32,000 nt of DNA from Candidatus Saccharimonadota bacterium (GCA_963706795.1 OY970170.1:90001-122000); one strand, 5' to 3'. Positions 4,953 through 27,007 are shown, counted from the first letter of the stretch. Notes: generated by a model not told the origin, from the letters alone. Translations and numbers: made by a program.

Positions 4953-4980
4953 TTGACATTCTTATATCTGTCAATATGCT
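4953..4980 (+). promoter_or_regulatory. Candidate sigma70-type promoter (TTGACA-N16-TATGCT)
   Basis: Perfect -35 TTGACA at 4953-4958, a 16-nt spacer, then TATGCT at 4975-4980. The ATG at 4989 is only 8 nt downstream, which would imply a leaderless or near-leaderless mRNA. Confidence 0.3.
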
Positions 4981-4988
4981 CCATTTTA

Positions 4989-6293
4989 ATGAATATAGAG
5001 CACTCTAATTATCATTCTAAGAATCTTGTCTGAGCGGGTATCTCGGACTTTTTTCCTGATGATCAGGGGCATCTTTTTTCTCACGAAGAACAATCTCAAG
5101 TGCTTGAGTCTTCCCTTGCTCAAAATGGTATTTTTTGTATACAACTTCCCAAATGAGTCCTTGCAAGCGAGATGCCCGAACTCTTGCATACGCAGCTCGA
5201 CCAGGCCTATGAACTGGACAGGATTCGTCTCGAAAATCACAGAATAGCGAACGGACTTATTGAGCCCGTTCGTGATCCAATCGATCCGCGCTGAAAGTAC
5301 CATCCAGAAGAAAAACGCTTCTGCAATAATGGATGGATGGCTCCGGATGGCACCATTCATCTCTGTCACTGGCATGATCCAGGACATGATCCATACGCGC
5401 CCTATTTTCTCCTTGATACTATCAAAATGCGAAGTCTCGGATTTTCTGTAGGCGAAGCAAGACGCGTTGCTGAAAACCATTCGCTCAGTGCACAAGGATG
5501 GATCAAGCTCCATCGTGAAATATTTCAGATCACCAGCTGGACTCCAGAGCAACAAGCAATGATAAAACTCTGGACAGAAATCATGCCCGACACACAAACT
5601 CGTGACCTTTGATTTATAGATCGTGGCGAGAAAGCTAAAAAGCTTGATCTCGAGAAAACTCGTACACAAATTTTAGGCGCGATTGAGTTCAGGCAAGAAA
5701 TTGATTCACTTGGGACCACGCCTCTCTTTTTTTCGAGAAATTCATCTTCACGAGATATTGAGCGAATCATTACTCAGCGCTTTGGAAAGATCAACGCTCA
5801 GATATTTATTGATCGTCTTATAGATAGCTCTGTAGCGCAGCGTGCCATGGTCGCAATCTCTCCACAGTGAGATATGTTTTGTTTTGTGCCAAGACTCAGT
5901 CCGCGTGGTATGGAGCGATATGATGACGCGTATGATCCGTATTACTTTGACATAGGATATATGAATTCCCTCAATTGGGATGATGACTATATTGAGCACA
6001 CTGACGGCTTCTATCCATATTTTCAAAAACGAGGATATCTTGTGTTTGGTCTTGCACGGTTCAAAACGCATCTCGATGTTGCCACCGAAAAAGTTACTAA
6101 ATGGAGAGAGCAAAAACTTGCACAGAAGGACGATAGTGATAATGAAATCTCTATTCCGGAAACTATCATTACCGAATCCCAACTCACCGCCATGAAGCGA
6201 TGGAATGAATTTTTTGATCCGCTCACCGCAAAAGCAAAAAAGGCCTACGATGCAGAAAATCTCGCAGATGATAACTCTGATATTCCATTCTAA
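4989..6293 (+). CDS. Hypothetical protein (434 aa), continuous only if TGA=Gly
   Basis: The plus frame is open from ATG 4989 to TAA 6291-6293, with in-frame TGA at 5031, 5154, 5292, 5610 and 5868. It joins track ORFs 5337..5612 and 5874..6293. The amino-acid composition is balanced, and a strong terminator follows at 6301-6332. The overlapping minus-strand ORFs look like antisense shadows. No family recognised. Confidence 0.6.
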
Positions 6294-6300
6294 AGCCAAA

Positions 6301-6332
6301 ATAAAGCCTCCCGAATTGGGAGGCTTTATTTT
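6301..6332. terminator. Bidirectional terminator hairpin shared by convergent genes
   Basis: AAAGCCTCCC (6303-6312) pairs with GGGAGGCTTT (6318-6327), giving a 10-bp stem with loop GAATT. T-rich tracts flank it on both strands. It sits 8 nt after the plus-gene stop and 1 nt after the minus-gene stop. Confidence 0.85.
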
Positions 6333-6333
6333 G

Positions 6334-7215
6334 CTAAGAGAATATCCACGGAGCAATCGTATTAAGGATAAATCCTACCAAAAAGAGAAGCACCAGCCCC
6401 ATGATGAGCTTACTAATGCGCCCCTTTGCCTTAGTGCGAGATCCTTCGTCATCGGCACTGAGTGACCACTGGATTCCAGAGAGTACAATCATAAGTACTC
6501 AGAGAAGTGCTGTAATAAATGTCGCGTACTTGATGAGTCCACCAAGGAAGCCTTGTACTGTGGCAAATCCGCCCTGCACTGTACATTGATATTTTGCCTT
6601 TTCGACACCTCAAGTCGCAATCTGTACACAGTTTGCTCCAGGGATATTTTCGGTGGTTGTAATTTTAAGTGCTCACTTCTTTGATGAAGATGAACTCGGT
6701 GCAGTACTATCCGTTGATGAAGTCGCGGCATCTGATGGGGTAACCGGCGCCCCTGCCGCATCGAGCGTCACAGGCTGACCATCTCAACCAGAGACTGTCA
6801 CGGAACCATCAGGATTTACTTTTACATTTGATTGCCCGCCATCTCCAACATGTGCAATTTCGTAGGCTTCGACCGCCTTTTGTTGTTCGGGCGTCATAAC
6901 CTTGCTACTTGGAGTAGCTGTGGTGTTCACATCCTTCGCTCCAGTTGACGGAGTTCCGTCAGCATTTTTATAGAGACCTGAATTATTTTGTGCTTCTTTT
7001 ACAGACTTTCCTTTGTCATCATTCGCACTCGAACTCGCTGGAAGTCCACTCTGACCGGCTGGCGGATCCGTATAGGTAATATTTCATTTCGCATCTTTTG
7101 TACCAATACTCGTTCCATCGCCACCGTAGATAATTTCATCAGCAAAAATTGGATGAATTCCCTGCAAGAGACCGAGTATTACAACCAAAAGGCCCGTCGT
7201 GAATATTTTTTTCAT
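6334..7215 (-). CDS. Secreted protein (293 aa) with a C-terminal VirB2/TrbC-like ('T4SS pilin'-type) two-helix hairpin
   Basis: Signal peptide MKKIFTTGLLVVILGLLQGIHPIFA, then an S/T/G/P/D-rich region of about 190 aa. A Cys pair (NCVQ...YQCT) precedes the hairpin TM-GIQWSLSADDEGSRTKAKGRISKLIMGLVLLFLVGFIL-TM. In-frame TGA codons occupy 7084-7086, 6784-6786, 6673-6675, 6610-6612 and 6499-6501. TAG stop at 6334-6336. Confidence 0.75.
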
Positions 7216-7219
7216 AATC

Positions 7220-8137
7220 TTAGAGTTTGAAATCAGCGAGATCCTTGAGGAAAGTATAGCTCGCAAGAAGAATAATCACCGCAATAAAGGTATTAATCAC
7301 AATGGATTTTCCCTTCTTGGCACGCTCCTCGTCACCGGCAGAGCTGATATAGTACCAAGCACCGAGTGTGAGGAAGAAGATCGCAGTGGGTCCTGCAAAA
7401 AAGAGAGCGAGATTAGCAAGCGATGCAAACATCGACTGGCCACTTGGGATATTACCCGAGTAGGCAACCGACACCCATGCCTGGATAACACCGAGGAATA
7501 TGAGTGCTAAAAATCCATAGAGCGCCTGGTTTTTGGCAGTCTTTCGAGCTTCGTCATTGCCGCCAGAAACGATGAGTTTAAAGCCGGCGAGCGCAAAGAA
7601 AAATATCGCAAATCCGATGATACCAATACGGATGAAGGCAATAACTCCATTCTCGATGGTTGAATTCCAGACATCAAAATTTACAAAAATATTCGTTCCG
7701 CCCTTTTGCGAAGAGACAAAGTCGCTATTCGTGGGGGTTCAGGTGATGTCCTTCCCGCCTCATTCCCTGCCTGCTGTAAAGACGTTATAGAGCTGACCAG
7801 GAATATTGACGAACAAAAATGCGATTACCGCGTAGACGAGTTGGCTTTTTTGTTTGGAGAGTTCGCCTTCATCGCCGTATGCGATCACCATCATAATACC
7901 GGCATAGACGATAAAAATGACTGCGAGACCATTGACGATGACCTTGGCGGTTGAGAGGATATTACGGCCGGCATTGCCGACTTTTTCGACGGTGGATTCA
8001 CCCGCGAGTGGCCCCATAGAAGTCGTCGAGAGCTCCCCTGCCCCTGGAATAACATCAACCCCCGCATTCACCGAAAAGGTTGCGAGGGTAAGAATTCCGA
8101 GGATGAGTGTGAGTGTTGCTTTTTTGAATATGGACAT
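7220..8137 (-). CDS. Signal-peptide protein (305 aa) made of three tandem VirB2/TrbC-like TM hairpins (six TM segments)
   Basis: It joins track ORFs 7760..8188 and 7220..7474 through TGA codons at 7760-7762 and 7739-7741. Signal peptide MSIFKKATLTLILGILTLATFSVNA. There are three repeats of TM, an acidic loop ending in K, then TM: ..AYGDEGELSKQKSQLVYAV.., ..VSGGNDEARKTAKNQALYGF.. and ..SSAGDEERAKKGKSIVINTF... ATG 8137 lies 1 nt after the pilT stop. Confidence 0.75.
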
Positions 8138-8138
8138 G

Positions 8139-9203
8139 TTATTCATCATTCGTGAAGTAGCCGATGTAGTCTTCTTGTTTGACGACACCGCCCGCTGCCA
8201 GCTTGTCAGCCGATGCGCGCATGGAGATCATACCTTCTTGGCTTCCAAGTTCAATATTATTATTGATTTGGATGAGGTCTCCGGATTTTATGAGGTTTTT
8301 GATCGCTGGTGTAATGAACATAAGCTCATGAATACCAACACGACCGTGCCCCTCCGCACGAGGAATCAGACGCTGCGAAAGCACTCCAAGAAGCGAATCC
8401 GCCAAACGCACCCGAACCTGCACCTGAATATCAGGCGGGAAAAACTGGATCAAACGATTAATTGTCTGCACCGAACCCGAGGTATGAAGCGTTGAAAATA
8501 CCAGATGACCCGTTTCTGCGAGATTCATTGCGGCTTCGACCGTCTCTTTGTCTCGCATTTCACCGACCATAACGATGTCAGGATCTTCACGCATCGCAGC
8601 TCGGATGGCTGATACAAACGAATCCGTATCGCGCCCAACTTCTCTCTGTGAAAATATTGATATTTTGTCTGTAAAAATGAATTCTATCGGATCTTCGATC
8701 GTAACGATATGCTCTCTACGGCTCTCATTAATACGATCAATAATCGATACCATCGTCGTCGACTTACCCGAACCTGTCGGCCCCGTGATGAGGAAAAGCC
8801 CCTGCTTTGCAGCCAAAATCTTGTTTACGCCCTGGGGCAAACCAAGGTCCTCCATCTTTTTAGCTTCGCGTTCAATACGACGAAGAACAAATCCTACCTT
8901 CCCGAGTTTAAAAAATCCATTTACACGAAAAGGCGTTCCATCGCGCGATACATAGGCGAAGTCGACATCGTGCTTTGCATAAAATGCAGTTTGATTGTCC
9001 TTGTCACCCTTAAAAAGCTCAAGTGCGAGAGCATCGGCAATTTCAGGCGTGATCTTGCCAGCTTCCTGCAGCTTTGCGAGCTCGCCGTGGACACGAAACG
9101 CGATAAATTCTCCCTCGGCAATATGGATATCCGATGCGGTGATCTTGATGGCATATGCGAGAATCCCCTCGAGGGAGAAACCTTGGTTTGTGTTTTCGGA
9201 CAT
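8139..9203 (-). CDS. pilT: PilT-like type IV pilus retraction ATPase (354 aa)
   Basis: Walker A GPTGSGKSTT, Asp box IVTIEDPIEF, Walker B DPDIVMVGEMRD, His box TGHLVFSTLHT, and a PilT-type AIKNLIKSGD motif. The length is typical of PilT rather than PilB. No in-frame TGA. Confidence 0.88.
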   Translation of the reverse strand: MSENTNQGFSLEGILAYAIKITASDIHIAEGEFIAFRVHGELAKLQEAGKITPEIADALALELFKGDKDNQTAFYAKHDVDFAYVSRDGTPFRVNGFFKLGKVGFVLRRIEREAKKMEDLGLPQGVNKILAAKQGLFLITGPTGSGKSTTMVSIIDRINESRREHIVTIEDPIEFIFTDKISIFSQREVGRDTDSFVSAIRAAMREDPDIVMVGEMRDKETVEAAMNLAETGHLVFSTLHTSGSVQTINRLIQFFPPDIQVQVRVRLADSLLGVLSQRLIPRAEGHGRVGIHELMFITPAIKNLIKSGDLIQINNNIELGSQEGMISMRASADKLAAGGVVKQEDYIGYFTNDE

Positions 9204-9206
9204 AAA

Positions 9207-9857
9207 TTATGCAGGAATTTCTTTAGTAAGCATGGCGATAACTTTTTGCGCGCGTTTGCTATCTGCTTCGATTTTCTGAGTCTCTTCTTCTTTAGCCTTA
9301 GCTTCTGCAAGGATACGCTCGCTTTGTGCAATAAGATCAGCTTTCTCATCGAGAAGTGCCTTAATCTTTGCTTCGTCTCGTTTTACATTTTCCTGGATCT
9401 TGGCAATCGTTGCAGTAATTGTACTATCGAGATCCATCGTATCTGAAACTTCAGCAAGATCGAATGCTTCCGTTGCTTTTGGCTCGACAACTGCAGCGAA
9501 TTCTTCTCTCGTTGCGTTTACGGTTTCGATTACTGGAAGTGATTCGATCGTATCAATAACTGATTCAGGAGCTTCGGATACTGGATCAAAAAAGAGATCG
9601 GTTGCTTCGGAAGCGGCTGAAACTGTATCAGTTGAAGCAATAACTGGCTCATCAAAAGTAACAACATCAGCTGTAGTTTCTTCGTCTGCAAAGGCAGAAA
9701 TATGAGGAGCTTCGGTAGCAGGCTCGTCATTTAAGATCAAAAAGTCAGAAGTCGCAAGAGAAGTATCCGACTCAGGAGCTTCAGTAGTTACGGGAGTTGC
9801 CACAGCAGTCGCTGTTTTTGAAGAAGACGAATCGTCAGCAAAATTAAAGAAATCCAT
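9207..9857 (-). CDS. Acidic low-complexity protein with a C-terminal coiled coil (216 aa)
   Basis: ATG-to-TAA ORF whose stop lies 3 nt before the pilT ATG. The N-terminal two-thirds are rich in D/E/T/A/S. The C-terminus (IAKIQENVKRDEAKIKALLDEKADLIAQSERILAEAKAKEEETQKIEADSKRAQ) has heptad-like character. No family recognised. Confidence 0.65.
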   Translation of the reverse strand: MDFFNFADDSSSSKTATAVATPVTTEAPESDTSLATSDFLILNDEPATEAPHISAFADEETTADVVTFDEPVIASTDTVSAASEATDLFFDPVSEAPESVIDTIESLPVIETVNATREEFAAVVEPKATEAFDLAEVSDTMDLDSTITATIAKIQENVKRDEAKIKALLDEKADLIAQSERILAEAKAKEEETQKIEADSKRAQKVIAMLTKEIPA

Positions 9858-9906
9858 AGAGAGACATTAATAAATACTTCAAAAGGCTACCACAACGTTG
9901 AAGCAT

Positions 9907-9934
9907 TTGCAAAAAACGCGGAGAGTTCTATAAT
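9907..9934 (+). promoter_or_regulatory. Candidate promoter for ybaB (TTGCAA-N16-TATAAT)
   Basis: TTGCAA at 9907-9912, a 16-nt spacer, and a perfect TATAAT at 9929-9934, 24 nt upstream of ATG 9959. It lies in the divergent intergenic region. Confidence 0.45.
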
Positions 9935-9958
9935 CACCCCGTTTTTTTCACTACCAAT

Positions 9959-10258
9959 ATGGATTACTCAAAAGCCAAAGATTTGCTCAAGCTCCAGCAA
10001 GAAGCACAAAAAATTCAGAACGAACTCAGCAATATCCACATCGAAGCCGAAGTCGACGGTGTAGTTATCACGGTTGACGGCCAGATGAAGATCATCGGTG
10101 TCACCATCGAAGACGAATCCATCCTCAAAGACAAAACCCGCCTCGAAAAATCCACAATGGAAGCGATCAACAAGGGTATCAAAAAATCCCAAGAAATCGC
10201 CGCAGAAAAAATGAAATCCGTTATGGGAAGTATGGGATTGAATTTACCTGGGATGTAG
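9959..10258 (+). CDS. ybaB: YbaB/EbfC-family nucleoid-associated protein (99 aa)
   Basis: Size and layout are typical of the family: N-terminal helix LLKLQQEAQKIQNEL, then EVDGVVITVDGQMKIIGVTIEDESI, then a C-terminal helix and a GLNLPGM tail. Confidence 0.8.
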   Translation: MDYSKAKDLLKLQQEAQKIQNELSNIHIEAEVDGVVITVDGQMKIIGVTIEDESILKDKTRLEKSTMEAINKGIKKSQEIAAEKMKSVMGSMGLNLPGM

Positions 10259-12341: not shown

Positions 12342-15300
12342 ATGTTTTCGCTCAAGAGGAATATTTCATGGATTACAATCGGCACGGTATTGTCGCTGGT
12401 CATCAGTTTCAATGTATTTGCCGTAGACTACGCAAATACAATCGGAATATATGGGACTTGATTCAACAATACACTGGATGCTGATGCCAATCTTATTTCG
12501 TCCGATTATTTCACGGGATATGTCGGGGATTACTGAACCAAGTACACTCCTCCACTATTCAATCCAGAGGAATCAAATCTCGTGATGAGTAATTTTACTG
12601 GGGTAATATGAGACTACGGAAGCAAATTTTTGCTTACAGAAGCATCTGGAAGCCTACTAAGCATAAACGATTTCAAGGGAACAATTGGTGACTATGGTTC
12701 AAAATTTGATCTCAATCTTCCAACAGGCCCACTACTCAGTTTCAATCAGTTCACTGGTAGTATCTGAGACTATGGTACTCAGTTTAGTAATACCCTCGAT
12801 CCATCAGTAAATTTATTACCTAAGGCAAAATTTACTGGTTATATTGGTGCGTATCAGGACGCCCCTCGCCTTTCGCAGTTCACCTCAGGTCGCGTAGACA
12901 AGCTGGATTTTCAGCTTGCAGCCGCTTCATCCGATCCCGAAAGCACAAAATGAATCCGCACACCAAATATTCATGCGGCAAAAAAACAAATAACAGAAGC
13001 GAGAAATGAGGTTGATCCCGTAGAGCTCTCCACAGGAGAATTCGTCTACGATAATACCCTCATGCAGTTCCCAAGCACGGGACTTGGGTACAATTTCAGT
13101 ATCAAATACCGCTCGCAGGTATCGTTCACTGGATCACTGGGTTATAATTGGACACACACATATGACAGAAAACTCTATCAGAACGCTGATGCCTCGGTAA
13201 CTTACCAAGATGGCGATGGAGCAATGCATACTTTCAAACCTTCGAGTGATGGATACGAATACCTCACTGGGTACGAAGCAAATCTCTCAAAGACTTCGTC
13301 TGGAGGATATTTGATCACATTCAAGAACGGAAACACAGAAACCTTCAACGATCAAGGTCTTACAACTCAGAGTGCAGATGCGAACGGGAATACTCTCACG
13401 TATTCGTACAACACACTCGGACAACTCACACTCGTACAAGATCGTTTCGGACGCACTGCGACATACGAATATACCGCTGCAGGATATATCTCTCGGGTAA
13501 CTGACAATACTGGAAGATCCGTGATACTTGCTTACTACGACGGAACAACCGCGGATGGATACGACGGAGATCTCAAGTCCATCATCTTGCATAATTCTGA
13601 AACGAGTGAGAAGACGATCGGATTCACGTATTTCAAATCCTCAGATCCAAGCCTTGCACACAACCTCATCTCACTCATCGATTCGAAGGGGCAAATCTAC
13701 GTCACAAATACATACGATACCAACGACCGCGTCCTCTCACAACACTACGGAGACGGGACTGGAAGCTTCGAATACACACTCGCAGATATCCATGCCGACG
13801 ATACACCAGCAAGCATCGGAAGCGGTGCAGTGATCGGGCAATATATCGTGAAAAACCATGCCACTGACAAGGAAGGAAATATCACTGAGTACACATACAA
13901 CCGCCTCGGTAATGTCATCAAGAAGGAAGTATTCGCAAAAGATGGTACAAGTAGCAATATCACCCGCTACACCTACGACACCGTTTGACGCATCACTGCC
14001 GAGATTTTCCCACGTGGGAATGGAACGGCATGGGGATACAACACTGCAGGTAAGAAAATCGAAGCACGACAGAAATCAGATATTTCAGCACCAAACAATG
14101 ACTCGCAGGATATCATCACACGATATTCTTACGATGCTACGACGAACAAACTGCTTACCACTACCCTTCCAGACGGCAGTGTCATCACAAATACATACGA
14201 CTCACGAGGCAATCTCACACGAGTCACTCAGGGCGGCGTAGTTCTCGCTCTTGGAGGATCGATGAACACGATCGCACAGGCATTTGTATACTCAGACCGC
14301 GGAGAAATACTCTCGACACAGGACGCAGAGGGGAACTTCACACAGTTTGCGTATTCGGGTGCAAACGTGATCCAAAAAACAACTGGATCATGAGCGAGTA
14401 CCATCACAGAATCATATTCCTATGATACTCACGGGAATCGCACCAGTCTCAAAGATGGTGAAAATAATACTACTGCCTACGAATACGATCCATTCGATCG
14501 TCTCATCTCAACTACCAGTCCAAAGTGAGTTCGTACCGAATACGGCTACGATGCGAACAACAACCGCCTCTTTGAGCGAGTACTCATGGGTACTGGTAAA
14601 ATTACCCAGACTCAATACACCTATGATATCCTCGATCAGGTCATCACAAAAACATCCGACATCGACACAACTCACACGCTCGCCGAGCGCACCACCTACA
14701 CGAAGAACGGAAAACCAAAAACCCTCACGATCGAAGGAGGTCCAACTAAGACATTTGTATATTCTCCAGATGAGAAAATCATCTCCGAGACCCTGAGTGC
14801 ATCTGGGATGACTTCAGCGGTCACGACCTACGAATACGATGCAAACAGCAATCCGATCAAGATCACTGATCCGCTCGGACGTATTACACGATCAGAATAC
14901 GATGGATTCGATCATCTGATCAAGACTATTTCACCAAGTGGAGTGAATACACTCTATAGCTATGACGTGCTTTGAAATCTCTCAAAAACTGAGACCCTCT
15001 CCCCTACTGGAGTTCGTCTGAGCCTGAGTGAAACCGTGACAAATTCTCTGAAGAAACCACTTGCGCAAACCCTCTACCAACTCGACATTCAAGGGAATGT
15101 TATCGCCTGAGCTGCGCACCGTACTCAGAAGTTCGCCTACAACAAAAACTCAGCCGTCATCCTCGAGACCAATCCACTTGGGGGAGTTACCAGCTCACAG
15201 TACAATTCACTCGGACAGCTCACGAGCAAAGTCGACCCCACGAATACCACGACCACCTATGCCTACAATCCTCGCGGTCTTGTCGCTCAGGAAACTACGA

Positions 15301-18122
15301 GTCTTTCTGGTGTAACACAGACTCGCACCACCTATGGATACGATCTCGACGGTCGCATGATCCAGTCGACTCGCTACGATGATCAAACTCCCGTCACAAC
15401 GCAGGTGACCTACGATGCGCTTGGTAATCCCCTCTCCCAGACCGACCCAGCAGGCAATATCACAACCCGCACTTTTGACCTGCGTGGTAAACTCCTCTCT
15501 GAGTCACAGAGTCTCTCAGGTGCACTCGTAACTACCAGCTACGAATACGATATCCTCGGCAACAAAACCAAGCTCATCGATCCAAAGTGAAATGCCACCA
15601 TCTACACCTACGACGGATTCGGTCGCAAAACTCAGGACACGCTTCCTGATGGATCGAAGACGTATTTCACCTACGATCTAGCGAACCAGCTCACCCAAAA
15701 GATCGACCCTAATGGTTCGGTATTTCATCAGACCTTTGACCTCGAAGGCCGCCTCACCGAGCGCACGATCGAGCGTGCCGCAGGTGTTGCAGGTGTAAAT
15801 AGTGAAACCTTCACCTACGACGCCCTGGGACGACTCACGAACACGAGCGACAACCTCGGTCACACCGTCGCACTCAAATATGATTCCCTCGGCAACAAAC
15901 TCGAGGAACTCAGCAACGGTCGCACGATCACGAACACATATAATCCTGCAGGAAATGCCCTCACGATAGGACTTCCTTCTGGCAAAAATATTACTCAGAC
16001 TTTTGACAATATCGGTCGTCTCACACATGTCGCAACGAATACTGGAGCGATTATCGACTACCAGTTTTCGGGAAATACGCTCACGAATACTCTCTACGGT
16101 AATGGAGTTACCCAATCACGCACCTACGATGGACTCATGCGTCTGGGGTCACTCAATGCAACCGCTTCATGAGCCACGAATATCAACCGCATCTACACCT
16201 ACGATAGCCTCGACAATATCCTCACTGATAGCCAAAGTACACACACCTACGATGCACTTTCTCGCCTCACGAGTTCGACTTCGAGTGTCCTTCCTATGGC
16301 CACTTCGAGCTTCAACTACGATATATCAGGCAATCGTACTACGCAACAAGCAACCAATGCACCACAGACGCTCTACGAGACTAATACACTCGATCAATAT
16401 ACTACCCTCTCAGGTACGAATACCGGCGTACTTCGTTATGATCTCAATGGAAATCTCCTAGAAAATACTCGATTTGTCTTCGTATATGATGCTCACAATC
16501 GACTGGTTTCGGTGAGCGAAAAGGTGGTAGATATCGTACCTCCTGCGACTGGAAGTGGCTCGACGGGAACTGGTTCTACTGGAAGCGGAGAAACCAGCAC
16601 GGGTTCTACGAATTCGGGAACTACAAACGAAACAGGAACTGGAACATGATCAACTGGAAGTGGATCGACTGGATCGGGAGAAATCCTTCCAGAGACGGGA
16701 ACTGGAAGTGAGAGTGGGACAGGTTCACAGAATTCTTCAGGAAGTACGTCATCAGGTATGACTTCAACGGGCGGGACACAGACAGGAAGCACCGAAACAG
16801 GATCGACTTCAACAGGTTCAACAGAAAGTGGTAGCACTTCCCTACCTGAGACGAATACAGGCGGGACTTCTACTGGTGAAACTGGAACAGGAAGTGGTAA
16901 TCTCACAGGCTCAGGCGTATCTGTCATTCCTGAGGTAGTGACAATCGGTTCAATCGAAGAAACGGGGACTGGAACGAATACTGGAAGTGGATACGCACTC
17001 CGACTGGTCGCCACATATAGTTATGACACTCTTGGTCGAAGACTCAGTAAGGATGTTGGACCAAAGCATGTAGAATATGCATATTCAGGAGAACAGCTCA
17101 TGTTTGAACGTGTGAGTGAGAATGGAGTGAGTGTAGATGCTGAATATGTATACGGTATCGGAGGAATGGACGATGTAATAGCTTCTGTGTCTTCTTCTGG
17201 AGATGTGAGGTATTTCTTACATGATCATCTGGGATCGACGGTTGGAGTGATGGATGGAAGTGGAGGGATGATTCAGGAGTATGCGTATGGAGTATTTGGG
17301 GATGTGCATGTGAAGAGTGGAAGTGGAGGGTTTGTGAGTGGTAGTTCGCTTATTACTTCGAGACTATTCACTGGAAGAGAATATGATGCGGAGACTGGAT
17401 TGTATTATTACAGAGCAAGAACGTATGATGCTGCTTTGGGTAGATTCTTGCAGAGAGATCCGATTGGGACGGATGATCAGGTGAATATGTATACGTATGT
17501 GAGGAATAATCCAATGAAGTGGGTTGATCCGAGTGGGATGAGTACAAAAGAGTTTATTGCAAAACACGATGCAACATCACTTTTGGAAAAATATATGAAT
17601 GATGCGCGAGACGAACTTAGTTTCGGATGAGTATTTCCAAAATGGGGGTACTCACAAATCGATTATGGCGTATGATCATTTTCAGCAAAAAAATGGAACA
17701 TAAAATATAACGTAGATTTCCAGACTCTTGCATTTGATCCTTCGAATAACAATCAATCTTGTGCGACCTATGGAAATAATTGAGCATGATGATGCAAAGT
17801 ATACATTGAGTGAGAATCTGTCGAACTCTCAGAATTATGAAATTTTCTAATTTGATATAATTGAGTTTACGCAGGTTATACCCTAAACGATCCTGATAAC
17901 GTTGCAGATATTTATAAATCGGGGATGTTTGTAGAATACAATTTAACAAATGAAAAATGAACAGATAGAACAAGGGAAGCTGCACTAAACGATGAGCTAC
18001 AGGATCGCAAATGGTATGATATTGGCTACAAAAAATGAGCCAGGGAAATGACTGCAAAATGGGGATTTCAGAGAGATCAAATATCACTCAAAGAGGCTAT
18101 TATTTATTGAAACACCCGCTAA
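12342..18122 (+). CDS. Rhs/YD-repeat polymorphic toxin with an N-terminal Sec signal peptide (1926 aa)
   Basis: A single frame (codon starts divisible by 3) is open from ATG 12342 to TAA 18120-18122 when 25 in-frame TGA are read as Gly. Signal peptide MFSLKRNISWITIGTVLSLVISFNVFA. There are dozens of YD repeats (YxYDxxG[RN]L). The Rhs core end reads RFLQRDPIGTDDQVNMYTYVRNNPMKWVDPSGM and is followed by a 193-codon C-terminal tip (CT1, 17541-18119). Confidence 0.9.
12432..12890 (+). repeat. Six tandem repeats of about 26 aa, F-[TK]-G-x-[IV]-G-D-Y-G-[ST]-[KQ]-F, in the Rhs N-terminal region
   Basis: The units are TIGIYGTGF, FTGYVGDYGTKY, FTGVIGDYGSKF, FKGTIGDYGSKF, FTGSIGDYGTQF and FTGYIGAYQD. 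Equivalent Gly positions are encoded by GGN in some units and TGA in others (12459, 12534, 12609, 12765). Confidence 0.8.
16545..16992 (+). repeat. Gly/Ser/Thr-rich low-complexity insert (about 150 aa) inside the Rhs repeat region
   Basis: Degenerate short tandem DNA repeats (actggaagtgg/tcgac-type) encode TGSGSTGTGSTGSGETSTGSTNSG...GTSTGETGTGSGNLTGSG. They lie between YDAHNRLVSVSEK and ATYSYDTLGRRLSK. The minus-strand P/V-rich ORF 16493..17014 is its antisense shadow. Confidence 0.85.
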
Positions 18123-18123
18123 T

Positions 18124-18399
18124 ATGAAACAATCATTAAAGAAAATCAGAATAGCAATAATCTATTTGCTTGTAGTATTGCCGTTTCCATTTATTTATTA
18201 TGAATTGGGAATTTTCTTATTTACATTTAGTTATCAACATATCTTCATTTGTTCAACTCCAATGGGATATTGTGGCGAAGAAGAAATTAAGAGTCTGTTA
18301 TTTTCAATAGTCACAGCTACAATATTTATCTCAGTAATATATTACTTGGTATTTCGCATACTAAAGTGATACATCGATAGCAAATCAAAAGACATATAG
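18124..18399 (+). CDS. Small membrane protein (91 aa); candidate immunity protein for CT1
   Basis: The ATG lies 1 nt after the Rhs TAA (cgcTAAtATG). Hydrophobic segments IAIIYLLVVLPFPFIYYELGIFLFTF and LLFSIVTATIFISVIYYLVF. It reads through TGA 18367 to TAG 18397-18399. Confidence 0.6.
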
Positions 18400-18419
18400 G
18401 TATATATTGGACAAAGATT

Positions 18420-18890
18420 ATGCAAAAAATTACATTCCTTCTGTTTAGCACTCTTTTAGCACTAGTACTTATTAAGTTTACTTTTAGTTTATTCAAGGAA
18501 AGCCCTGTTAACCTTGCCATAACAACAAATAATACTGATGCTCAGACTTTAGAAGGTTTTCTTGCAGAGCTCAAAGCCTCTGGACTTATTTGTGAGGATA
18601 GCGGACAAGTAACTTTTTATATCTTGGATAATACTAAGTCTAAGGTAGTAGGTAAGGCGACCTGAGATACAGAATCAAAGATCATAGGAATGTGCAAGAA
18701 ATATTGAATTGCCGAAATATGGAAACAGAATGATTATATACTCTTCTCAATGCTTGGTCCTATTAGATGACATGGATTTCTACGTTACTATTCCGATAGG
18801 ATTCCAAAAGATATACAAGACAAAGGAGTAGACGGCGAGCTCAAAGCAGTAAATTCGAATTGGATACTTGTTACACCAACTCCAAATTAA
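18420..18890 (+). CDS. Signal-anchored or secreted protein (156 aa), second gene of the CT1 cassette
   Basis: Begins MQKITFLLFSTLLALVLIKFTFSLF. Track ORF 18420..18665 extends through TGA 18663, 18705 and 18768 to TAA 18888-18890. No family recognised. Confidence 0.55.
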
Positions 18891-19918
18891 GACAGGCGCT
18901 CAGCAAAAAAACTGAGGATGAAGTAAATACAACTACTGAGTATGTATACGGTATCGGAGGAATGGATGATGTAGTAGCTTCTGTGTCTTCTTCGGGAGAT
19001 GTGAGGTATTTCTTACATGATCATCTGGGATCGACGGTAGGAGTGATGGATGAGAGTGGAGAGATGATTCAGGAGTATTCGTATGGAGTATTTGGGGATG
19101 TGCATGTGAAGAGTGGAAGTGGAGGGTTTGTGAGTGGTAGTTCGCTTATTACTTCGAGACTATTCACTGGAAGAGAATATGATGCGGAGACTGGATTGTA
19201 TTATTACAGAGCAAGAACGTATGATGCTGCTTTGGGTAGATTCTTGCAGAGAGATCCGATTGGGACGGATGATCAGGTGAATATGTATACGTATGTGAGG
19301 AATAATCCAATGAAGTGGGTTGATCCGAGTGGGATGAGTACAAAAGAGTTTATTGCAAAACACGATGCAACATCACTTTTGGAAAAATATATGAATGATG
19401 CGCGAGACGAACTTAGTTTCGGATGAGTATTTCCAAAATGGGGGTACTCACAAATCGATTATGGCGTATGATCATTTTCAGCAAAAAAATGGAACATAAA
19501 ATATAACGTAGATTTCCAGACTCTTGCATTTGATCCTTCGAATAACAATCAATCTTGTGCGACCTATGGAAATAATTGAGCATGATGATGCAAAGTATAC
19601 ATTGAGTGAGAATCTGTCGAACTCTCAGAATTATGAAATTTTCTAATTTGATATAATTGAGTTTACGCAGGTTATACCCTAAACGATCCTGATAACGTTG
19701 CAGATATTTATAAATCGGGGATGTTTGTAGAATACAATTTAACAAATGAAAAATGAACAGATAGAACAAGGGAAGCTGCACTAAACGATGAGCTACAGGA
19801 TCGCAAATGGTATGATATTGGCTACAAAAAATGAGCCAGGGAAATGACTGCAAAATGGGGATTTCAGAGAGATCAAATATCACTCAAAGAGGCTATTATT
19901 TATTGAAACACCCGCTAA
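18860..19918 (+). CDS. Orphan Rhs fragment 1: last ~130 aa of the Rhs core plus a toxin tip identical to CT1. No ATG start; probably silent
   Basis: Homology to the main gene begins at EYVYGIGGMDD (18940). The fragment contains the DPIG...DPSGM core end and then the same tip as 17541-18122. The frame is open only from 18800, the first ATG is internal, and TTG 18860 is the only possible start. TAA stop at 19916-19918. Confidence 0.6.
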
Positions 19919-19919
19919 T

Positions 19920-20195
19920 ATGAAACAATCATTAAAGAAAATCAGAATAGCAATAATCTATTTGCTTGTAGTATTGCCGTTTCCATTTATTTATTATGAA
20001 TTGGGAATTTTCTTATTTACATTTAGTTATCAACATATCTTCATTTGTTCAACTCCAATGGGATATTGTGGCGAAGAAGAAATTAAGAGTCTGTTATTTT
20101 CAATAGTCACAGCTACAATATTTATCTCAGTAATATATTACTTGGTATTTCGCATACTAAAGTGATACATCGATAGCAAATCAAAAGACATATAG
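19920..20195 (+). CDS. Duplicate copy of the 91-aa membrane protein (candidate CT1 immunity)
   Basis: Translation is identical to 18124..18399 at offset +1796. Confidence 0.6.
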
Positions 20196-20215
20196 GTATA
20201 TATTGGACAAAGATT

Positions 20216-20686
20216 ATGCAAAAAATTACATTCCTTCTGTTTAGCACTCTTTTAGCACTAGTACTTATTAAGTTTACTTTTAGTTTATTCAAGGAAAGCC
20301 CTGTTAACCTTGCCATAACAACAAATAATACTGATGCTCAGACTTTAGAAGGTTTTCTTGCAGAGCTCAAAGCCTCTGGACTTATTTGTGAGGATAGCGG
20401 ACAAGTAACTTTTTATATCTTGGATAATACTAAGTCTAAGGTAGTAGGTAAGGCGACCTGAGATACAGAATCAAAGATCATAGGAATGTGCAAGAAATAT
20501 TGAATTGCCGAAATATGGAAACAGAATGATTATATACTCTTCTCAATGCTTGGTCCTATTAGATGACATGGATTTCTACGTTACTATTCCGATAGGATTC
20601 CAAAAGATATACAAGACAAAGGAGTAGACGGCGAGCTCAAAGCAGTAAATTCGAATTGGATACTTGTTACACCAACTCCAAATTAA
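20216..20686 (+). CDS. Duplicate copy of the 156-aa signal-anchored protein
   Basis: Translation is identical to 18420..18890 at offset +1796. Confidence 0.55.
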
Positions 20687-21699
20687 GACAGGCGCTCAGC
20701 AAAAAAACTGAGGATGAAGTAAATACAACTACTGAGTATGTATACGGTATCGGAGGAATGGATGATGTAGTAGCTTCTGTGTCTTCTTCGGGAGATGTGA
20801 GGTATTTCTTACATGATCATCTGGGATCGACGGTAGGAGTGATGGATGAGAGTGGAGAGATGATTCAGGAGTATTCGTATGGAGTATTTGGGGATGTGCA
20901 TGTGAAGAGTGGAAGTGGAGGGTTTGCGAGTGGTAGTTCGCTTATTACTTCGAGACTATTCACTGGAAGAGAATATGATGCGGAGACTGGATTGTATTAT
21001 TACAGAGCAAGAACGTATGATGCTGCTTTGGGTAGATTCTTGCAGAGAGATCCGATTGGGACGGATGATCAGGTGAATATGTATACGTATGTGAGGAATA
21101 ATCCGATGAAGTGGGTTGATCCGAGTGGGATGAAAGGGAAACCAGCTACGCCTGAAAGGAAGTATGATGTAACTGAGATGGTGTTGTTTATATACGATTT
21201 ATCCCTAGAGAATACCGATTGATTTAATTTTTTTGTATTTAAGGAAGGTACAAAAAATGGCTGAGCTTTTGACATCAAAAGAAACTCATATATAGCTACT
21301 ATGGCAGCAAAGAATAATGGTATTGTTTACTTCGATTGACAAGCAGTTGAGCCTTCTAATTTAGGAAATTTGTTAGCAGGATTAAATATGAAGAACAGTT
21401 ATTTACCATCTTCATTGGTACGTAATAAGTTTATGGAAGTCGAGATAGACAATGCAACTAACGAGTGATACTGAAAATACGCGGAAGAAATTGCTAAATA
21501 TGATGAGCATAGTGATGAGGTTTGGTACGATGCATGAGAAAATATTTACAACACTTACACCAATGCGAGTACCAGGCAAGAAAAAATAGACACTATTCGA
21601 AATGCAATAACAAATACAACTCCAGAATACAAGAGGCGCTCAAACGAAGAGGGAGTAAAAAGAAAGTATTACAAAGATTTAATCAATAACCAAAACTAG
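20656..21699 (+). CDS. Orphan Rhs fragment 2: Rhs core end plus a divergent toxin tip CT2 (188 codons)
   Basis: The core piece is the same as in orphan 1 up to VDPSGM, then new sequence: KGKPATPERKYDVTEM... It continues through TGA 21220, 21262, 21337, 21466, 21472 and 21535 to TAG 21697-21699. CT2 shares motifs with CT1 (VYFDGQAVEPSNLGNLLAGLN vs VYIEGESVELSELGNFLIGYN; WYDAG vs WYDIG). Confidence 0.65.
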
Positions 21700-21702
21700 C
21701 AT

Positions 21703-22741: not shown

Positions 22742-23968
22742 TTATCCATTCATCGCCCGATAAATCAAACTCGCAACCTCACCTCTTGTGAGTGGTGCAT
22801 TAGGGTTGAAACTTGCACCGGACTCCAATGCATCATTGTCATTCGCCCAAACTATGTGCGGGAAGAACCAGTCGGTTGTCTTTACGTCGGGGAATGGTGA
22901 AGTTGCTGGCGTGCCAGGTTGTACACCAAGAAGTCCGAGGACAATTTTAAGACCTTCTACGCGAGTCACTGGAGCATTAGGTCGGAATGTACCATCTGGG
23001 TAGCCACCGACCGTTCCAAGGGCATGGGCGGTGTTTACGTATGACAAAAATGCATTGCCGACAGGTACGTCCGAAAAGTATGTGGTCGTGTCGTTTGTGA
23101 GGGATTTCTTAGAGGCATTAAATGCCATCTTGAGGATCTCTCCCCTGCTTACATTCGCATTTGGGAAAAATCGACCATTCTGGCCTGATGCGATACCATG
23201 ACTCTTGATAAAAGCCACTGCCGGAGCATAGAGATAGCTCGGTGATACATCACTAAAAAGTACATCATCATCGCCAGAAGTCACTGGAGTGGTAATCGTG
23301 ACCGTACTTGCTACTTCAACGGTTGGCTTCGGTGGAGTGACTACTGGAGTCGCGATGGGCGTGACAACTGGAGTGGGAACAGAAGGAGTCGGCGATCCGC
23401 CAACACGATCCAAAAATACGAGTGGATTCACTGTATAACGCACGCCGTTCTCGATACCAAGACCGCGATTTACTGCTTCCATAAAGCCGAGTCCGAGGGT
23501 TTGTGCATCCTTAAAACTAAATGGCCAATACGGATGAAACGGCGCATCCGCAACATCGATCTGAAAATGCAGATGTTCACCAGTCGACTGACCAGTATTG
23601 CCGGTTTTACCGATGATATCGCCTTCTTTGACTGTTTGCCCTTTGGTTACAGAGAGCTCTGAAAGATGAAGATAATTTGAGTAATACGTCGCTTTTTTGC
23701 CAGTTGCGGGATCGAGGACATTGTCGTGTTGGATCACTACAAAATTCCCATCTGCGGCATTCGTTCCTGCGGCAAATATTGTGCCATTAAGTACTGCATG
23801 GATCGGATCATTCGGAGACATTGGTACGATATCGACACCAGGATGGCTTCCAGAATTTTCGTCGTAGTCGCCTGAGACGTAATTGCCGAGATAGACCGTT
23901 GTGTAGGTCATAAAGAGTGTCGCGAGCTTCGTTGGATCGTAGGGTTTTGGTGTTCGGATTGGGTACAT
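22742..23968 (-). CDS. M23 family metallopeptidase with three C-terminal SLH domains (408 aa)
   Basis: M23 motifs HPGVDI and GEHLHFQI, then a P/T/V linker, then three S-layer-homology-like repeats (FSDVSPSY...FFPNANVSRGE; FSDVPVGN...GTFRPNAPVTRVE; FPDVKTTDW...FNPNAPLTRGE). No in-frame TGA. No recognisable signal peptide at the N-terminus, and a TAA lies 9 codons upstream of the ATG. Confidence 0.85.
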   Translation of the reverse strand: MYPIRTPKPYDPTKLATLFMTYTTVYLGNYVSGDYDENSGSHPGVDIVPMSPNDPIHAVLNGTIFAAGTNAADGNFVVIQHDNVLDPATGKKATYYSNYLHLSELSVTKGQTVKEGDIIGKTGNTGQSTGEHLHFQIDVADAPFHPYWPFSFKDAQTLGLGFMEAVNRGLGIENGVRYTVNPLVFLDRVGGSPTPSVPTPVVTPIATPVVTPPKPTVEVASTVTITTPVTSGDDDVLFSDVSPSYLYAPAVAFIKSHGIASGQNGRFFPNANVSRGEILKMAFNASKKSLTNDTTTYFSDVPVGNAFLSYVNTAHALGTVGGYPDGTFRPNAPVTRVEGLKIVLGLLGVQPGTPATSPFPDVKTTDWFFPHIVWANDNDALESGASFNPNAPLTRGEVASLIYRAMNG

Positions 23969-24010: not shown

Positions 24011-24844
24011 TTATCGAATCGATTTCATCGGAACATTTGCAAATCCGGTCTGATCTTGGATTTCTTCTGCCGAAGGATTTTTTTCGGAAGCACTCGCAGA
24101 CTCGATAATCGGAGTATCGATGACCGGAGGGGCTACCTGAGTGGACGTGGTAGTCGGAGTTTGTACATCAGTCCTGAGAGTAATGCGATCCATAGTCGCT
24201 GTCGTTTGCACACGATTTTTGAGATCTTCTTTTTGCTCTGGAAGCGTTGCCGAAAATATCTTGTCTGCGAGCCGATCAAGCCATGCAATAAATTTGTGGC
24301 TCGAAAATCCCGCTAAAAATGTAAATACGGCGTACATATAGATACTCTGGATGCTGATATCACTCCCAACAGCAGAAGCTCACTGGAGGACACCAAGACC
24401 GCTTCTCGCGATAAAAAATGCGATGATTCCGAGTACACTCGAGAGTACTGGCTGGATAAAGAACCAATAGACCCAAGTATGATTAAATCGCCCAACATAG
24501 ACTTCAACCGGCACAAGACGTTGGAATTCGGTATTTGAGATATGCCCTTGTACATAATCACCGTAAGCGACCGTGTAGATATTTGCGTATTTTACACTCT
24601 GATAGAAATCCTTAATCATAAATGACACGCCGCCCAAAATAGCCACCGAAAGCATCAGACAAATCACCTTCACTTCGCGCACTACGCTCTCAGGGAGCGT
24701 ATTTGTGCCAGTCAGTGAGAAGAAACGATTGATATCAAAGGCTACGGAATAGATCGCAACGCGGTATGCAATATACAGGAGCAATCCAATCCACAGGATG
24801 ATGACGAGCTTCGCGATGGTATTTTTTAGTTCGAAACGGTTCAT
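24011..24844 (-). CDS. Four-TM membrane protein with a Thr/Pro-rich C-terminal tail (about 277 aa)
   Basis: It joins track ORFs 24380..24859 and 24011..24337 (same frame) through the TGA codon at 24380-24382. ATG 24844 (MNRFELKNTIAKLVIILWIG...) is preferred over TTG 24859. TAA stop at 24011-24013. Confidence 0.65.
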
Positions 24845-26916: not shown

Positions 26917-26978
26917 GTGGATTGGTTTTGTTTGTGTATTCATGGCTTTAGCAATACTAGCACAGTATCCCATGGAGT

Positions 26979-27007
26979 TCAAAAAAACTCCTTGACGGAG
27001 AGGAGTT
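26979..27007 (-). terminator. Terminator-like hairpin on the minus strand, just upstream of the peptidase gene
   Basis: The minus strand reads AACTCCT-ctccgtca-AGGAGTT followed by T7. The plus-strand arms are 26986-26992 and 27001-27007. A second copy of GGAGTT at 26974-26979 could form an alternative pairing with 26986-26991. Confidence 0.55.

Follow-up and report, generated by a model that had tools for sequence, protein, structure and literature searches.

Why is a PilT ATPase encoded in one block with membrane proteins that resemble the VirB2 pilins of type IV secretion systems (T4SS)? This arrangement is found in a 32,000-nt stretch of DNA from Candidatus Saccharimonadota bacterium (GCA_963706795.1 OY970170.1:90001-122000), which is called the window below and from whose first letter its positions are counted. 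Four genes on the minus strand encode an acidic coiled-coil protein (g1), PilT, a triple-hairpin protein (g3) and a second hairpin protein (g4) (Table 1). We found that the ATPase belongs to the PilT subfamily, that g3 and g4 carry the T4SS pilin domain PF18895, and that the pairing is conserved across a clade of bacteria that read TGA as glycine (genetic code 25). Judged from sequence data, the block is tentatively regarded as a conserved host-contact operon of code-25 Patescibacteria (Gracilibacteria/BD1-5 and Absconditabacteria/SR1), a reading that we favor without holding it firmly.

Genetic code and gene order

The four-gene observation is valid under code 25 only, because translation with table 11 breaks g3 and g4 into fragments and leaves just the 216-aa and 354-aa open reading frames (ORFs) whole. 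With TGA read as Gly, g3 and g4 are intact and lie in the same orientation as pilT. Code 25 is independently backed by three observations. The TGA codon at amino acid 239 of g4 falls on a Gly that is invariant among the aligned orthologues of its family (family c, see below). PilT orthologues at related loci contain in-frame TGA codons (up to 29). Further long genes in the window, including one for a 1926-aa RHS protein, are open under code 25 alone. An origin of g3 and g4 as TGA read-through artefacts was ruled out by their homologues (139 for g3), by the TGA at the invariant Gly and by the TGA-bearing PilT orthologues. The gaps of 3, 1 and 4 nt between the four genes, as given in the initial annotation of the window, match the computed coordinates exactly. 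Co-transcription of pilT, g3 and g4 is predicted, and their translation is probably coupled.

The window ATPase is a canonical PilT

The ATPase scores 386.7 bits with TIGR01420 (PilT/PilU; cut-off 319.1) and also matches PF00437. A phmmer search of solved structures in the PDB ranked PilT first (283 bits), followed by PilU (212), DotB (144), PilB/GspE (~118) and VirB11 (35). The protein stays below the cut-offs of the DotB (157.7 against 463.3), TraJ (151.2 against 368.3) and VirB11 (53.6 against 250) models, and its scores with the GspE and PilB models are also far under the cut-off. Walker A, the Asp box/Walker B and the His box were located, together with an AIRNLIRE-like sequence; the AIRNLIRE motif tells PilT apart from PilU. 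The hidden Markov model and PDB rankings place the ATPase with PilT and not with PilB, VirB11 or GspE, a placement that the initial annotation had left to be checked. It was concluded from the sequence that the protein is a canonical PilT-subfamily hexameric ATPase with intact catalytic motifs. By the same scores it is not a VirB11, DotB or TraJ member, though it could still work like one. In many bacteria pilT lies away from pilB, and association with other pil genes is not strictly defining for it.

g3 and g4 are VirB2-like hairpin proteins

Both hairpin proteins exceed the 26.6-bit cut-off of PF18895 (T4SS_pilin), g3 with 56.0 bits over three stretches and g4 with 34.9 bits over one C-terminal stretch. 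Each g3 hairpin has a G-D/N-E-E...K-K-x-K loop, and both in-frame TGA (Gly) codons of g3 lie within a variable linker. The hairpins also match NF045849 below threshold (34.6 and 15.5 bits against a cut-off of 40). The AlphaFold2 model of P0001, a protein 64% identical to g3, has a helix for the signal peptide, then three helical hairpins, all of them long (pLDDT 76); its pTM is 0.48 and the packing of the hairpins relative to each other is uncertain. A Foldseek search of this model against the PDB returned only 14-3-3 and CopM helical noise, none of it at E <= 0.001, and is uninformative on VirB2 likeness. The hallmarks of such pilins (signal peptide, two-helix hydrophobic hairpin, short charged loop) are found in the P0001 model and in sequence features. 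The full-length g3 homologues are nearly all ~300 aa long, and their names are uninformative throughout, most being unnamed or 'hypothetical'.

In g4, a conserved two-Cys module (ENIPGANC...YQCTV) stands between a variable region and the hairpin, and the C-terminus reads APWIFS. The long low-complexity insert is lineage-specific, since g4 orthologues are only 130-200 aa long; this variable extension should face outward by prediction. Both g3 and g4 are classed as Sec-exported, VirB2-like membrane proteins, and g4 is predicted to be secreted or anchored.

The PilT-pilin linkage is conserved in the code-25 clade

One genome per GTDB species was scanned with the window PilT. The scan gave 80 loci, of which 33 use code 25 (Gracilibacteria, 'Peribacteria'-labelled metagenome-assembled genomes (MAGs) and SR1/Absconditabacteria) and 47 use code 11; individual loci are given L numbers here. 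Of the 27 code-25 loci with enough sequence, 24 have a PF18895-like ORF on the PilT strand within 3 kb downstream of PilT, against 1 of 42 code-11 loci. The ORFs were detected with a home-made hairpin profile, built from g3 and g4 and iterated on the loci, that may be less sensitive outside the clade. The difference is significant by Fisher's test (p = 3e-14), with the proviso that the loci are not phylogenetically independent. A 560-600-aa PilB-like ATPase is encoded directly 5' of pilT in about 20 code-11 loci (including Saccharibacteria, Paceibacteria and Woesebacteria) and in none of the code-25 loci. Synteny of the block extends to at least 18 species-level relatives, which speaks against a chance adjacency.

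Several arrangements can be told apart. Type P (L001-L014, L084, L094 and the window) has the order ybaB(-), g1, PilT, triple pilin, single pilin. The STAS type (L015-17, L022) is the same except that a STAS domain fused to PilT replaces g1. In SR1-like loci PilT is followed by a coiled-coil protein (136 aa, conserved), then by a c-like pilin and a small one. At L023 and L032 the pilins are inverted and lie upstream of PilT. At L034, a code-11 CPR (candidate phyla radiation) locus with a PilT outside the clade, PilT is followed by five hairpin genes. Flanks beyond the ybaB-g1-PilT-b-c core (b and c denote the triple and single pilin, see below) vary among loci.

Three of these arrangements deserve a closer description. 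The STAS-fused proteins (L015 7557-9071, L016 3984-5495, L017 2847-4364, L022 7533-9044) are PilTs of 503-505 aa with the STAS domain at the N-terminus instead of a separate g1; the domain scores 23.6 bits with PF01740 (cut-off 22.6). The fusion suggests regulated motor activity. In SR1/Absconditabacteria (L021, L023, L024, L026, L028-L033, L070; for example L029 9304-9714) the coiled-coil protein between PilT and the pilins is 134-136 aa long. It carries the motif EKQSWFNLLPMMN..EQI.KL..IL..EK.KL.EIE.KYE, belongs to no Pfam family and has no detectable homology to g1. The L034 contig (604-3997) is labelled Gracilibacteria, and its five consecutive PF18895-like genes start 2 nt past the PilT stop codon; it looks like a separate occurrence of PilT-pilin coupling. 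One further locus, L053, was considered as a second PilT paralogue of a code-25 genome and was ruled out, as it comes from a code-11 organism with 59% GC.

Could the adjacency simply be frozen by descent in a reduced genome, with no functional meaning? Most loci come from one clade, so that their counts are not independent, and at least two lineages have given up the linkage with no obvious consequence. We nevertheless consider such hitch-hiking highly unlikely. The flanks change while the ybaB-g1-PilT-b-c core stays, and the genes keep together despite PilT identities of 46-81%, insertions, fusions and inversions. The pairing recurs in L034, and intergenic gaps are 1-12 nt at several loci.

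The same pilins are found behind a coupling-protein-like ATPase

Seen from the pilins, a second context is widespread. In this Type V order (L082, L083, L086-L092 and about 29 metagenome loci) aspS(-) is followed by a 930-985-aa ATPase, triple pilin a (315-340 aa), triple pilin b (300 aa), single pilin c (130-155 aa) and mutL(-); the Type P context was met from the pilin side at L084/L085 and L094. The ATPase is regarded as a coupling-protein-like T4SS ATPase (T4CP) because of its DUF8128, T4SS-DNA_transf, TrwB_AAD_bind and TraG-D_C domains. The T4CP-like ATPase (L088 6221-9022; DUF8128 in its N-terminal region, VirD4/TraG-like core) is 68-81% identical among the ~120 homologues listed and the adjacent pilins only ~40%. 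There is also a separate 750-aa T4CP-like paralogue with 1739 matches, Absconditabacteria included. The 750-aa T4CP-like protein near L084 was tried as the Type V ATPase and rejected, being this separate, widely conserved paralogue.

End to end, g3 is 43-47% identical to b and 21-25% to a of the T4CP cluster, and g4 is 40-41% identical to c. Paralogue a reaches 24.9 bits with PF04956 (TrbC), under the cut-off of 27.9. In the pilin tree, a is the outgroup to all b-type proteins. The Type V b proteins form a clade (94% bootstrap) within a 98% group that also holds Type P and a small third clade; the STAS-type genes fall outside that group. The PilT tree agrees with this, SR1-like loci branching first, then the STAS type, then L018 and L019, then Type P. 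By sequence and tree, g3 and g4 are assigned as orthologues of cluster genes b and c, and we infer that b and c are single-copy orthologues. A T4SS ATPase (VirB4 or T4CP) beside PF18895 genes is absent from the window and present for the b/c orthologues at Type V loci. The PilT-pilin pairing is thus conserved across the code-25 clade and not obligatory, b-c standing behind a T4CP-like ATPase in a large sister lineage.

One assembly, PDTW01, contains both halves in the same genome: L018 has g1-PilT without pilins, and L089 has T4CP-a-b-c. A third arrangement (L093 7306-8918; L095 7277-10443) has a g1-like gene followed by, or overlapping, b, then genes for a 137-aa transmembrane protein and a VWA protein, with neither PilT nor c. 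PilT-b-c looks like the ancestral gene order, with T4CP-a-b-c and g1-b as later rearrangements. b-c would have moved behind T4CP-a in one large lineage, and another lineage would have lost PilT from the locus. As a and b duplicated before these splits, a T4CP-a pair should be present elsewhere in genomes like that of the window. 'T4CP-a only' clusters are expected, since such genomes would encode b-c elsewhere, and four were found in metagenomes (L120, L121, L124, L125), not tied to any Type P genome. In the match lists compared, the genomes with both a g3 homologue and the 930-985-aa ATPase are of Type V only. Several near-identical metagenome loci among L127-L146 (e.g., L127 647-6624) look like another fused-pilin architecture from a different organism, encoding in order a ~1485-aa protein, a single-hairpin protein of 174 aa and a protein of 316 aa that has two PF18895-like stretches.

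Arrays of VirB2-like PF18895 pilins near T4SS ATPases (virB4) are known in Patescibacteria and are essential in Southlakia (PMC12102498, PMC12857230). Because g3 and g4 carry PF18895, have a coupling-protein-like ATPase as neighbor in sister lineages and resemble these essential arrays beside virB4, they are most likely parts of a Patescibacterial T4SS-like apparatus and not of a type IV pilus (T4P). The 'uncharacterised surface filament' proposed in the initial annotation is less likely on this ground, g3 and g4 being orthologous to b and c of the T4CP cluster.

In a self-contained version of that proposal, PilT would make up a minimal surface filament with the two hairpin proteins, the triple one acting as a PilC-like platform and the single one as filament or adhesin subunit. 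Such a machine would account for four compact genes with their own terminator, for the long variable, outward-facing extension predicted in g4 and for the lack of other machinery genes within 32 kb. It is improbable, however. Orthologous b-c are embedded in T4CP-a-b-c clusters of many genomes, and in PDTW01, the sole genome sampled at both loci, PilT is elsewhere. L093 and L095 have b without PilT and without c, no assembly (PilB-like) ATPase is encoded, and PilT-only systems are unknown.

g1 is a fast-evolving acidic protein

The g1 protein contains 22% D+E; its middle part is disordered, and ~70 aa at the C-terminus form a coiled coil. It starts with MDFFN (family consensus MGFFD) and carries the short motifs FLILND and FF-D/E-P. 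Neither a signal peptide nor a transmembrane segment was predicted, no family was found in the Pfam and NCBIfam libraries, and 1.84 billion representative proteins contained a single relative. When 16 syntenic homologues were aligned, the MGFFD N-terminus, FLIIDD, FF(S/D)EP, ~20% acidic residues and the C-terminal coiled coil were seen to be conserved; g1 is a fast-evolving family. A g1-like gene lies 5' of PilT in L001-L014, L018, L019, L084 and L094, and 5' of the triple pilin, with PilT absent, in L093 and L095. The 136-aa coiled-coil protein encoded after PilT in SR1 loci was compared with g1, and homology of the two was rejected (hhalign probability 4%).

Type IV pilus genes in the window and in related genomes

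The 32-kb window contains no second T2SSE ATPase and no prepilin motif, and no T4P Pfam family was hit by the flanking window ORFs scanned. The statement in the initial annotation that pilB, pilC, pilM-O and class III prepilin genes are missing is borne out by these ATPase, motif and Pfam scans; a complete T4P set (PilB, PilC, alignment proteins and class III prepilin) is found in neither operon nor window. A pil operon just outside the window, with the four genes as ordinary members, had also been considered. The block is not part of one, because it is bounded by a terminator and a convergent gene on one side and by the divergent ybaB on the other.

Prepilin-like genes occur near PilT at two code-25 loci only, L016 and L084. 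These class III prepilin-like genes (GFTLVEL) encode 605 aa (L084 5078-6895, the same as L085 3004-4821) and 123 aa (L016 7930-8299). They are probably not an enrichment, since many prepilin genes are reported per genome in code-25 lineages. These lineages encode scattered T4P genes, with two copies each of pilB, pilC and pilT (PMC11393006, PMC6851277, PMC8080830), and BD1-5/Gracilibacteria genomes have two pilT genes plus pilB, pilC and pilD elsewhere (PMC6851277, PMC11393006). The description 'lone pilT' therefore fits the operon and the window, where pilT is alone among T4P genes, and does not fit the published relatives, which carry a further pilT and other pil genes. In a BD1-5 MAG paper the surroundings of the dispersed pil genes are described as conserved yet 'hypothetical' (PMC11393006).

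What PilT may do in this operon

Our working interpretation, held tentatively and on sequence grounds, is that PilT is a T4P retraction motor co-expressed with T4SS-type pilins. PilT would retract type IV pili built from the pil genes scattered in the genome (pilB, pilC, pilD and many prepilins). The operon would co-express retraction and T4SS-type membrane components, so that pulling the cell onto a host coincides with installing a contact or transfer apparatus. g1 would act as regulator or adaptor of PilT. This interpretation is favored by a PilT sequence that is canonical throughout and far under the DotB, TraJ and VirB11 cut-offs, and by the finding that a large lineage could give up the PilT-pilin linkage. 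It is also favored by the possibility that g1-PilT and g1-b are just breakpoints of one ancestral operon.

Several points weigh against it. None of the 33 code-25 loci has pilB, pilC or pilM within ~8 kb of PilT, and with two pilT copies in a genome, one paralogue could be specialised. The pilin linkage was kept over deep divergence (PilT identity 46-81%); it outlasted the STAS-PilT fusion, the insertion of a coiled-coil gene in SR1 and the pilin inversion in L023/L032, and it recurs in L034. Such persistence exceeds the strict needs of co-regulation and fits a direct functional link. The argument for the ancestral order is one of parsimony, the trees are neighbor-joining only with bootstrap on a 30-sequence subset, and the same-genome evidence for the split arrangement comes from one assembly, PDTW01.

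A direct link would mean that one PilT paralogue is the cytoplasmic motor of a VirB2-type T4SS-like apparatus, an analogue of VirB11 or DotB. It would pull hairpin pilins out of the membrane or put them back, so that a short VirB2-like filament is extended and retracted or the channel is gated. g1, or in some lineages the fused STAS domain, would be an adaptor or regulator, and the six-transmembrane triple-hairpin protein a membrane platform, possibly a VirB6 replacement. We regard this as possible. PilT-pilin adjacency is tight, deeply conserved in rearranged forms and separately recurrent in L034. The b-c pair alternates between PilT and T4CP contexts, which links both ATPases to the same pilins, and g1 is found beside PilT without pilins (L018, L019) and beside b without PilT (L093, L095). 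Two pilT copies exist in these genomes (PMC6851277, PMC11393006). Published work on T4SS adds further points: conjugative pili require both VirB4 and VirB11, VirB11 is missing from all Gram-positive T4SSs, no monoderms other than Patescibacteria have VirB2-like pilins, and DotB, a PilT-like ATPase, works in a T4SS (PMC12857230). In Gracilibacteria no VirB6 can be detected (PMC12102498), and in size the triple-hairpin proteins would suit as its substitute. On the other side, every sequence test shows the ATPase to be an ordinary PilT, unlike DotB or VirB11. In the large Type V lineage the pilins have moved from PilT to the T4CP cluster, and no change is visible in PilT-g1. g1-b and g1-PilT may be plain breakpoints of one ancestral operon and not independent associations, and no PilT is known that acts on VirB2-type pilins.

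In its most specific form, one of the two PilT paralogues would have been recruited as the missing VirB11/DotB-type motor, with the triple-hairpin proteins as VirB6-like platform, the single-hairpin protein as exposed subunit and g1 or STAS as adaptor. We consider this full scheme doubtful; if true, it would make this VirB2-type filament the first in a monoderm to be retractable or ATP-gated.

Borders of the operon and neighboring genes

The operon ends at a hairpin with a stem of ~18 bp (-26.4 kcal/mol, z = -6.84); none of 200 shuffled sequences was as stable. It agrees with the shared terminator (6301-6332) of the initial annotation and also closes the convergent gene on the plus strand. A consensus terminator scan of the same DNA did not call it and folding revealed it; the scan probably missed it owing to A-U pairs that absorb part of the T tail. 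The convergent gene encodes a His/Asp/Trp-rich protein with no Pfam family at E <= 0.01. On the upstream side, the ybaB gene in L081, identical to that of the window, has a YbaB_DNA_bd Pfam match. Several Type P loci have a 99-aa opposite-strand ORF upstream of g1-PilT, with a Pfam YbaB match in L084/L085 and L094. A promoter-like site in the spacer would drive ybaB, and the promoter scan found no consensus promoter for the operon itself.

Table 1. Positions of the operon, its features and its neighbors in the window
Feature	Position	Strand	Remarks
g1	9207-9857	minus	216 aa, in-frame TGA 0
PilT	8139-9203	minus	354 aa, in-frame TGA 0
Walker A	8757-8783	minus	PilT motif, GPTGSGKST
Asp box/Walker B	8550-8591	minus	PilT motif, REDPDIVMVGEMRD
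His box	8481-8513	minus	PilT motif, TGHLVFSTLHT
AIRNLIRE-like motif	8283-8306	minus	PilT-type motif, AIKNLIKS
g3 ('b')	7220-8137	minus	305 aa, in-frame TGA 2
g3 hairpins (3, tandem)	~7793-7993, 7472-7678, 7238-7453	minus	VirB2-like, after signal peptide
g4 ('c')	6334-7215	minus	293 aa, in-frame TGA 5
g4 signal peptide	~7141-7215	minus	
g4 variable region	~6661-7140	minus	S/G/A/T/D-rich, 160 aa
g4 hairpin	6337-6570	minus	VirB2-like
Intrinsic-terminator-like hairpin	~6295-6335		bidirectional, between operon and convergent gene; folding
Convergent gene	4953-6293	plus	446 aa (434 from first ATG)
Spacer and divergent ybaB/ebfC-like gene	9858-10258		101-nt intergenic spacer; gene 9959-10258 (plus); upstream operon edge
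Promoter-like site	9906-9934	plus	
RHS/YD-repeat protein	12342-21700	plus	1926 aa
Peptidase_M23 proteins (2)	22742-23968, 24826-26982	minus	

Further along the window, the RHS/YD-repeat protein has a Gly/Ser/Thr-rich insert. The region of its C-terminal tip (from ~17117) opens three tandem cassettes, spaced 1796 nt apart and with a 300-nt core that is 94-100% identical. In each of the two downstream cassettes an RHS C-terminal tip of ~350 aa stands as an orphan together with a secreted protein of 156 aa without family; a toxin/immunity array is likely. Over the RHS stretch GC content falls to 0.34-0.39 and GC skew flips. Of the two large Peptidase_M23 proteins, one has three SLH domains; in the other, a weak glucosaminidase domain accompanies a long coiled coil. 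In a predatory or epibiotic cell, such enzymes could plausibly attack the host wall.

Significance

Patescibacterial PF18895 arrays, PilT and PilT-like T4SS ATPases (DotB) are already known. The published literature searched contained no conserved PilT/T4SS-pilin operon of the code-25 clade, nor did it describe families a and b of fused triple hairpins, a T4CP-a-b-c cluster as such or the g1 family; published surveys anchored on virB4 did not bring out the last three. The role of the Patescibacterial T4SS is described as completely unknown (PMC11665869), and the system is essential in the one species tested. VirB11, the ATPase required for pilus building in Gram-negative systems, is absent from monoderm T4SSs (PMC12857230). 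A PilT encoded in one operon with T4SS-type pilins across a class-level clade is a candidate for this missing VirB11 motor, or alternatively may reflect a hard-wired coupling of pilus retraction with installation of a contact apparatus. The pairing could bear on host contact by tiny parasitic bacteria that read TGA as Gly. The cultivated Absconditabacteria (Vampirococcus, Absconditicoccus) are candidate test organisms.

Comparison with known systems

The pilin arrays of Patescibacterial T4SSs, exemplified by Southlakia epibionticum ML1 and Nanosynbacter TM7x (Quinonero-Coronel et al., 2025, PMC12102498; reviewed in PMC12857230), are the closest counterparts of g3 and g4. Both sets score above the PF18895 threshold, combine a Sec signal peptide with a helical hairpin and occur as several divergent tandem copies, and orthologues of g3 and g4 lie directly behind a T4SS coupling-protein-like ATPase in sister lineages. 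The arrays differ in consisting of separate genes, whereas families a and b have three hairpins fused in ~300 aa. In the window g3 and g4 follow PilT and not VirB4 or T4CP, and no VirB3, VirB4, VirB6 or VirB8 gene is nearby. 'PilT' is not mentioned in PMC12102498, PMC12857230 and PMC11665869, and the one paper matched on Patescibacteria, pilT and VirB2 treats pilT and virB2 in separate contexts.

Type IVa PilT (Aquifex aeolicus 2EWV, Pseudomonas aeruginosa 3JVV, Geobacter 6OJX) resembles the window PilT in giving its best match (283 bits), in passing TIGR01420, in its Walker A/B motifs, Asp and His boxes and AIRNLIRE-type motif, and in typical length (354 aa here). The neighbors differ: instead of pilB, pilC, pilM or a prepilin gene, an acidic coiled-coil protein and T4SS-type hairpin proteins are encoded here, and some orthologues have a STAS domain.

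The Mycoplasma pilin-like proteins of integrative and conjugative elements (Mbov_0395 family, NF045849) are small two-helix proteins of a monoderm system related to mating-pair formation class FATA (MPF-FATA), and each hairpin matches them weakly. They are single hairpins on mobile elements, whereas g3 and g4 are chromosomal and lineage-conserved and g3 is fused.

DotB of the Dot/Icm type IVB secretion system and TraJ of IncI plasmids offer a parallel for the ATPase, being PilT-superfamily hexameric ATPases encoded with T4SS components. Both are VirB11 counterparts, and the window PilT would, hypothetically, fill a VirB11-type role that monoderm T4SSs lack. It differs from them in not being an orthologue, in coming from a monoderm and in having no VirB4/DotO adjacent. 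DotB as a PilT-like ATPase at work in a T4SS (PMC12857230) is also the precedent that makes the T4P/T4SS boundary less sharp than the initial annotation implied; what stands of its claim is that a true PilT and PF18895 hairpin proteins share one operon.

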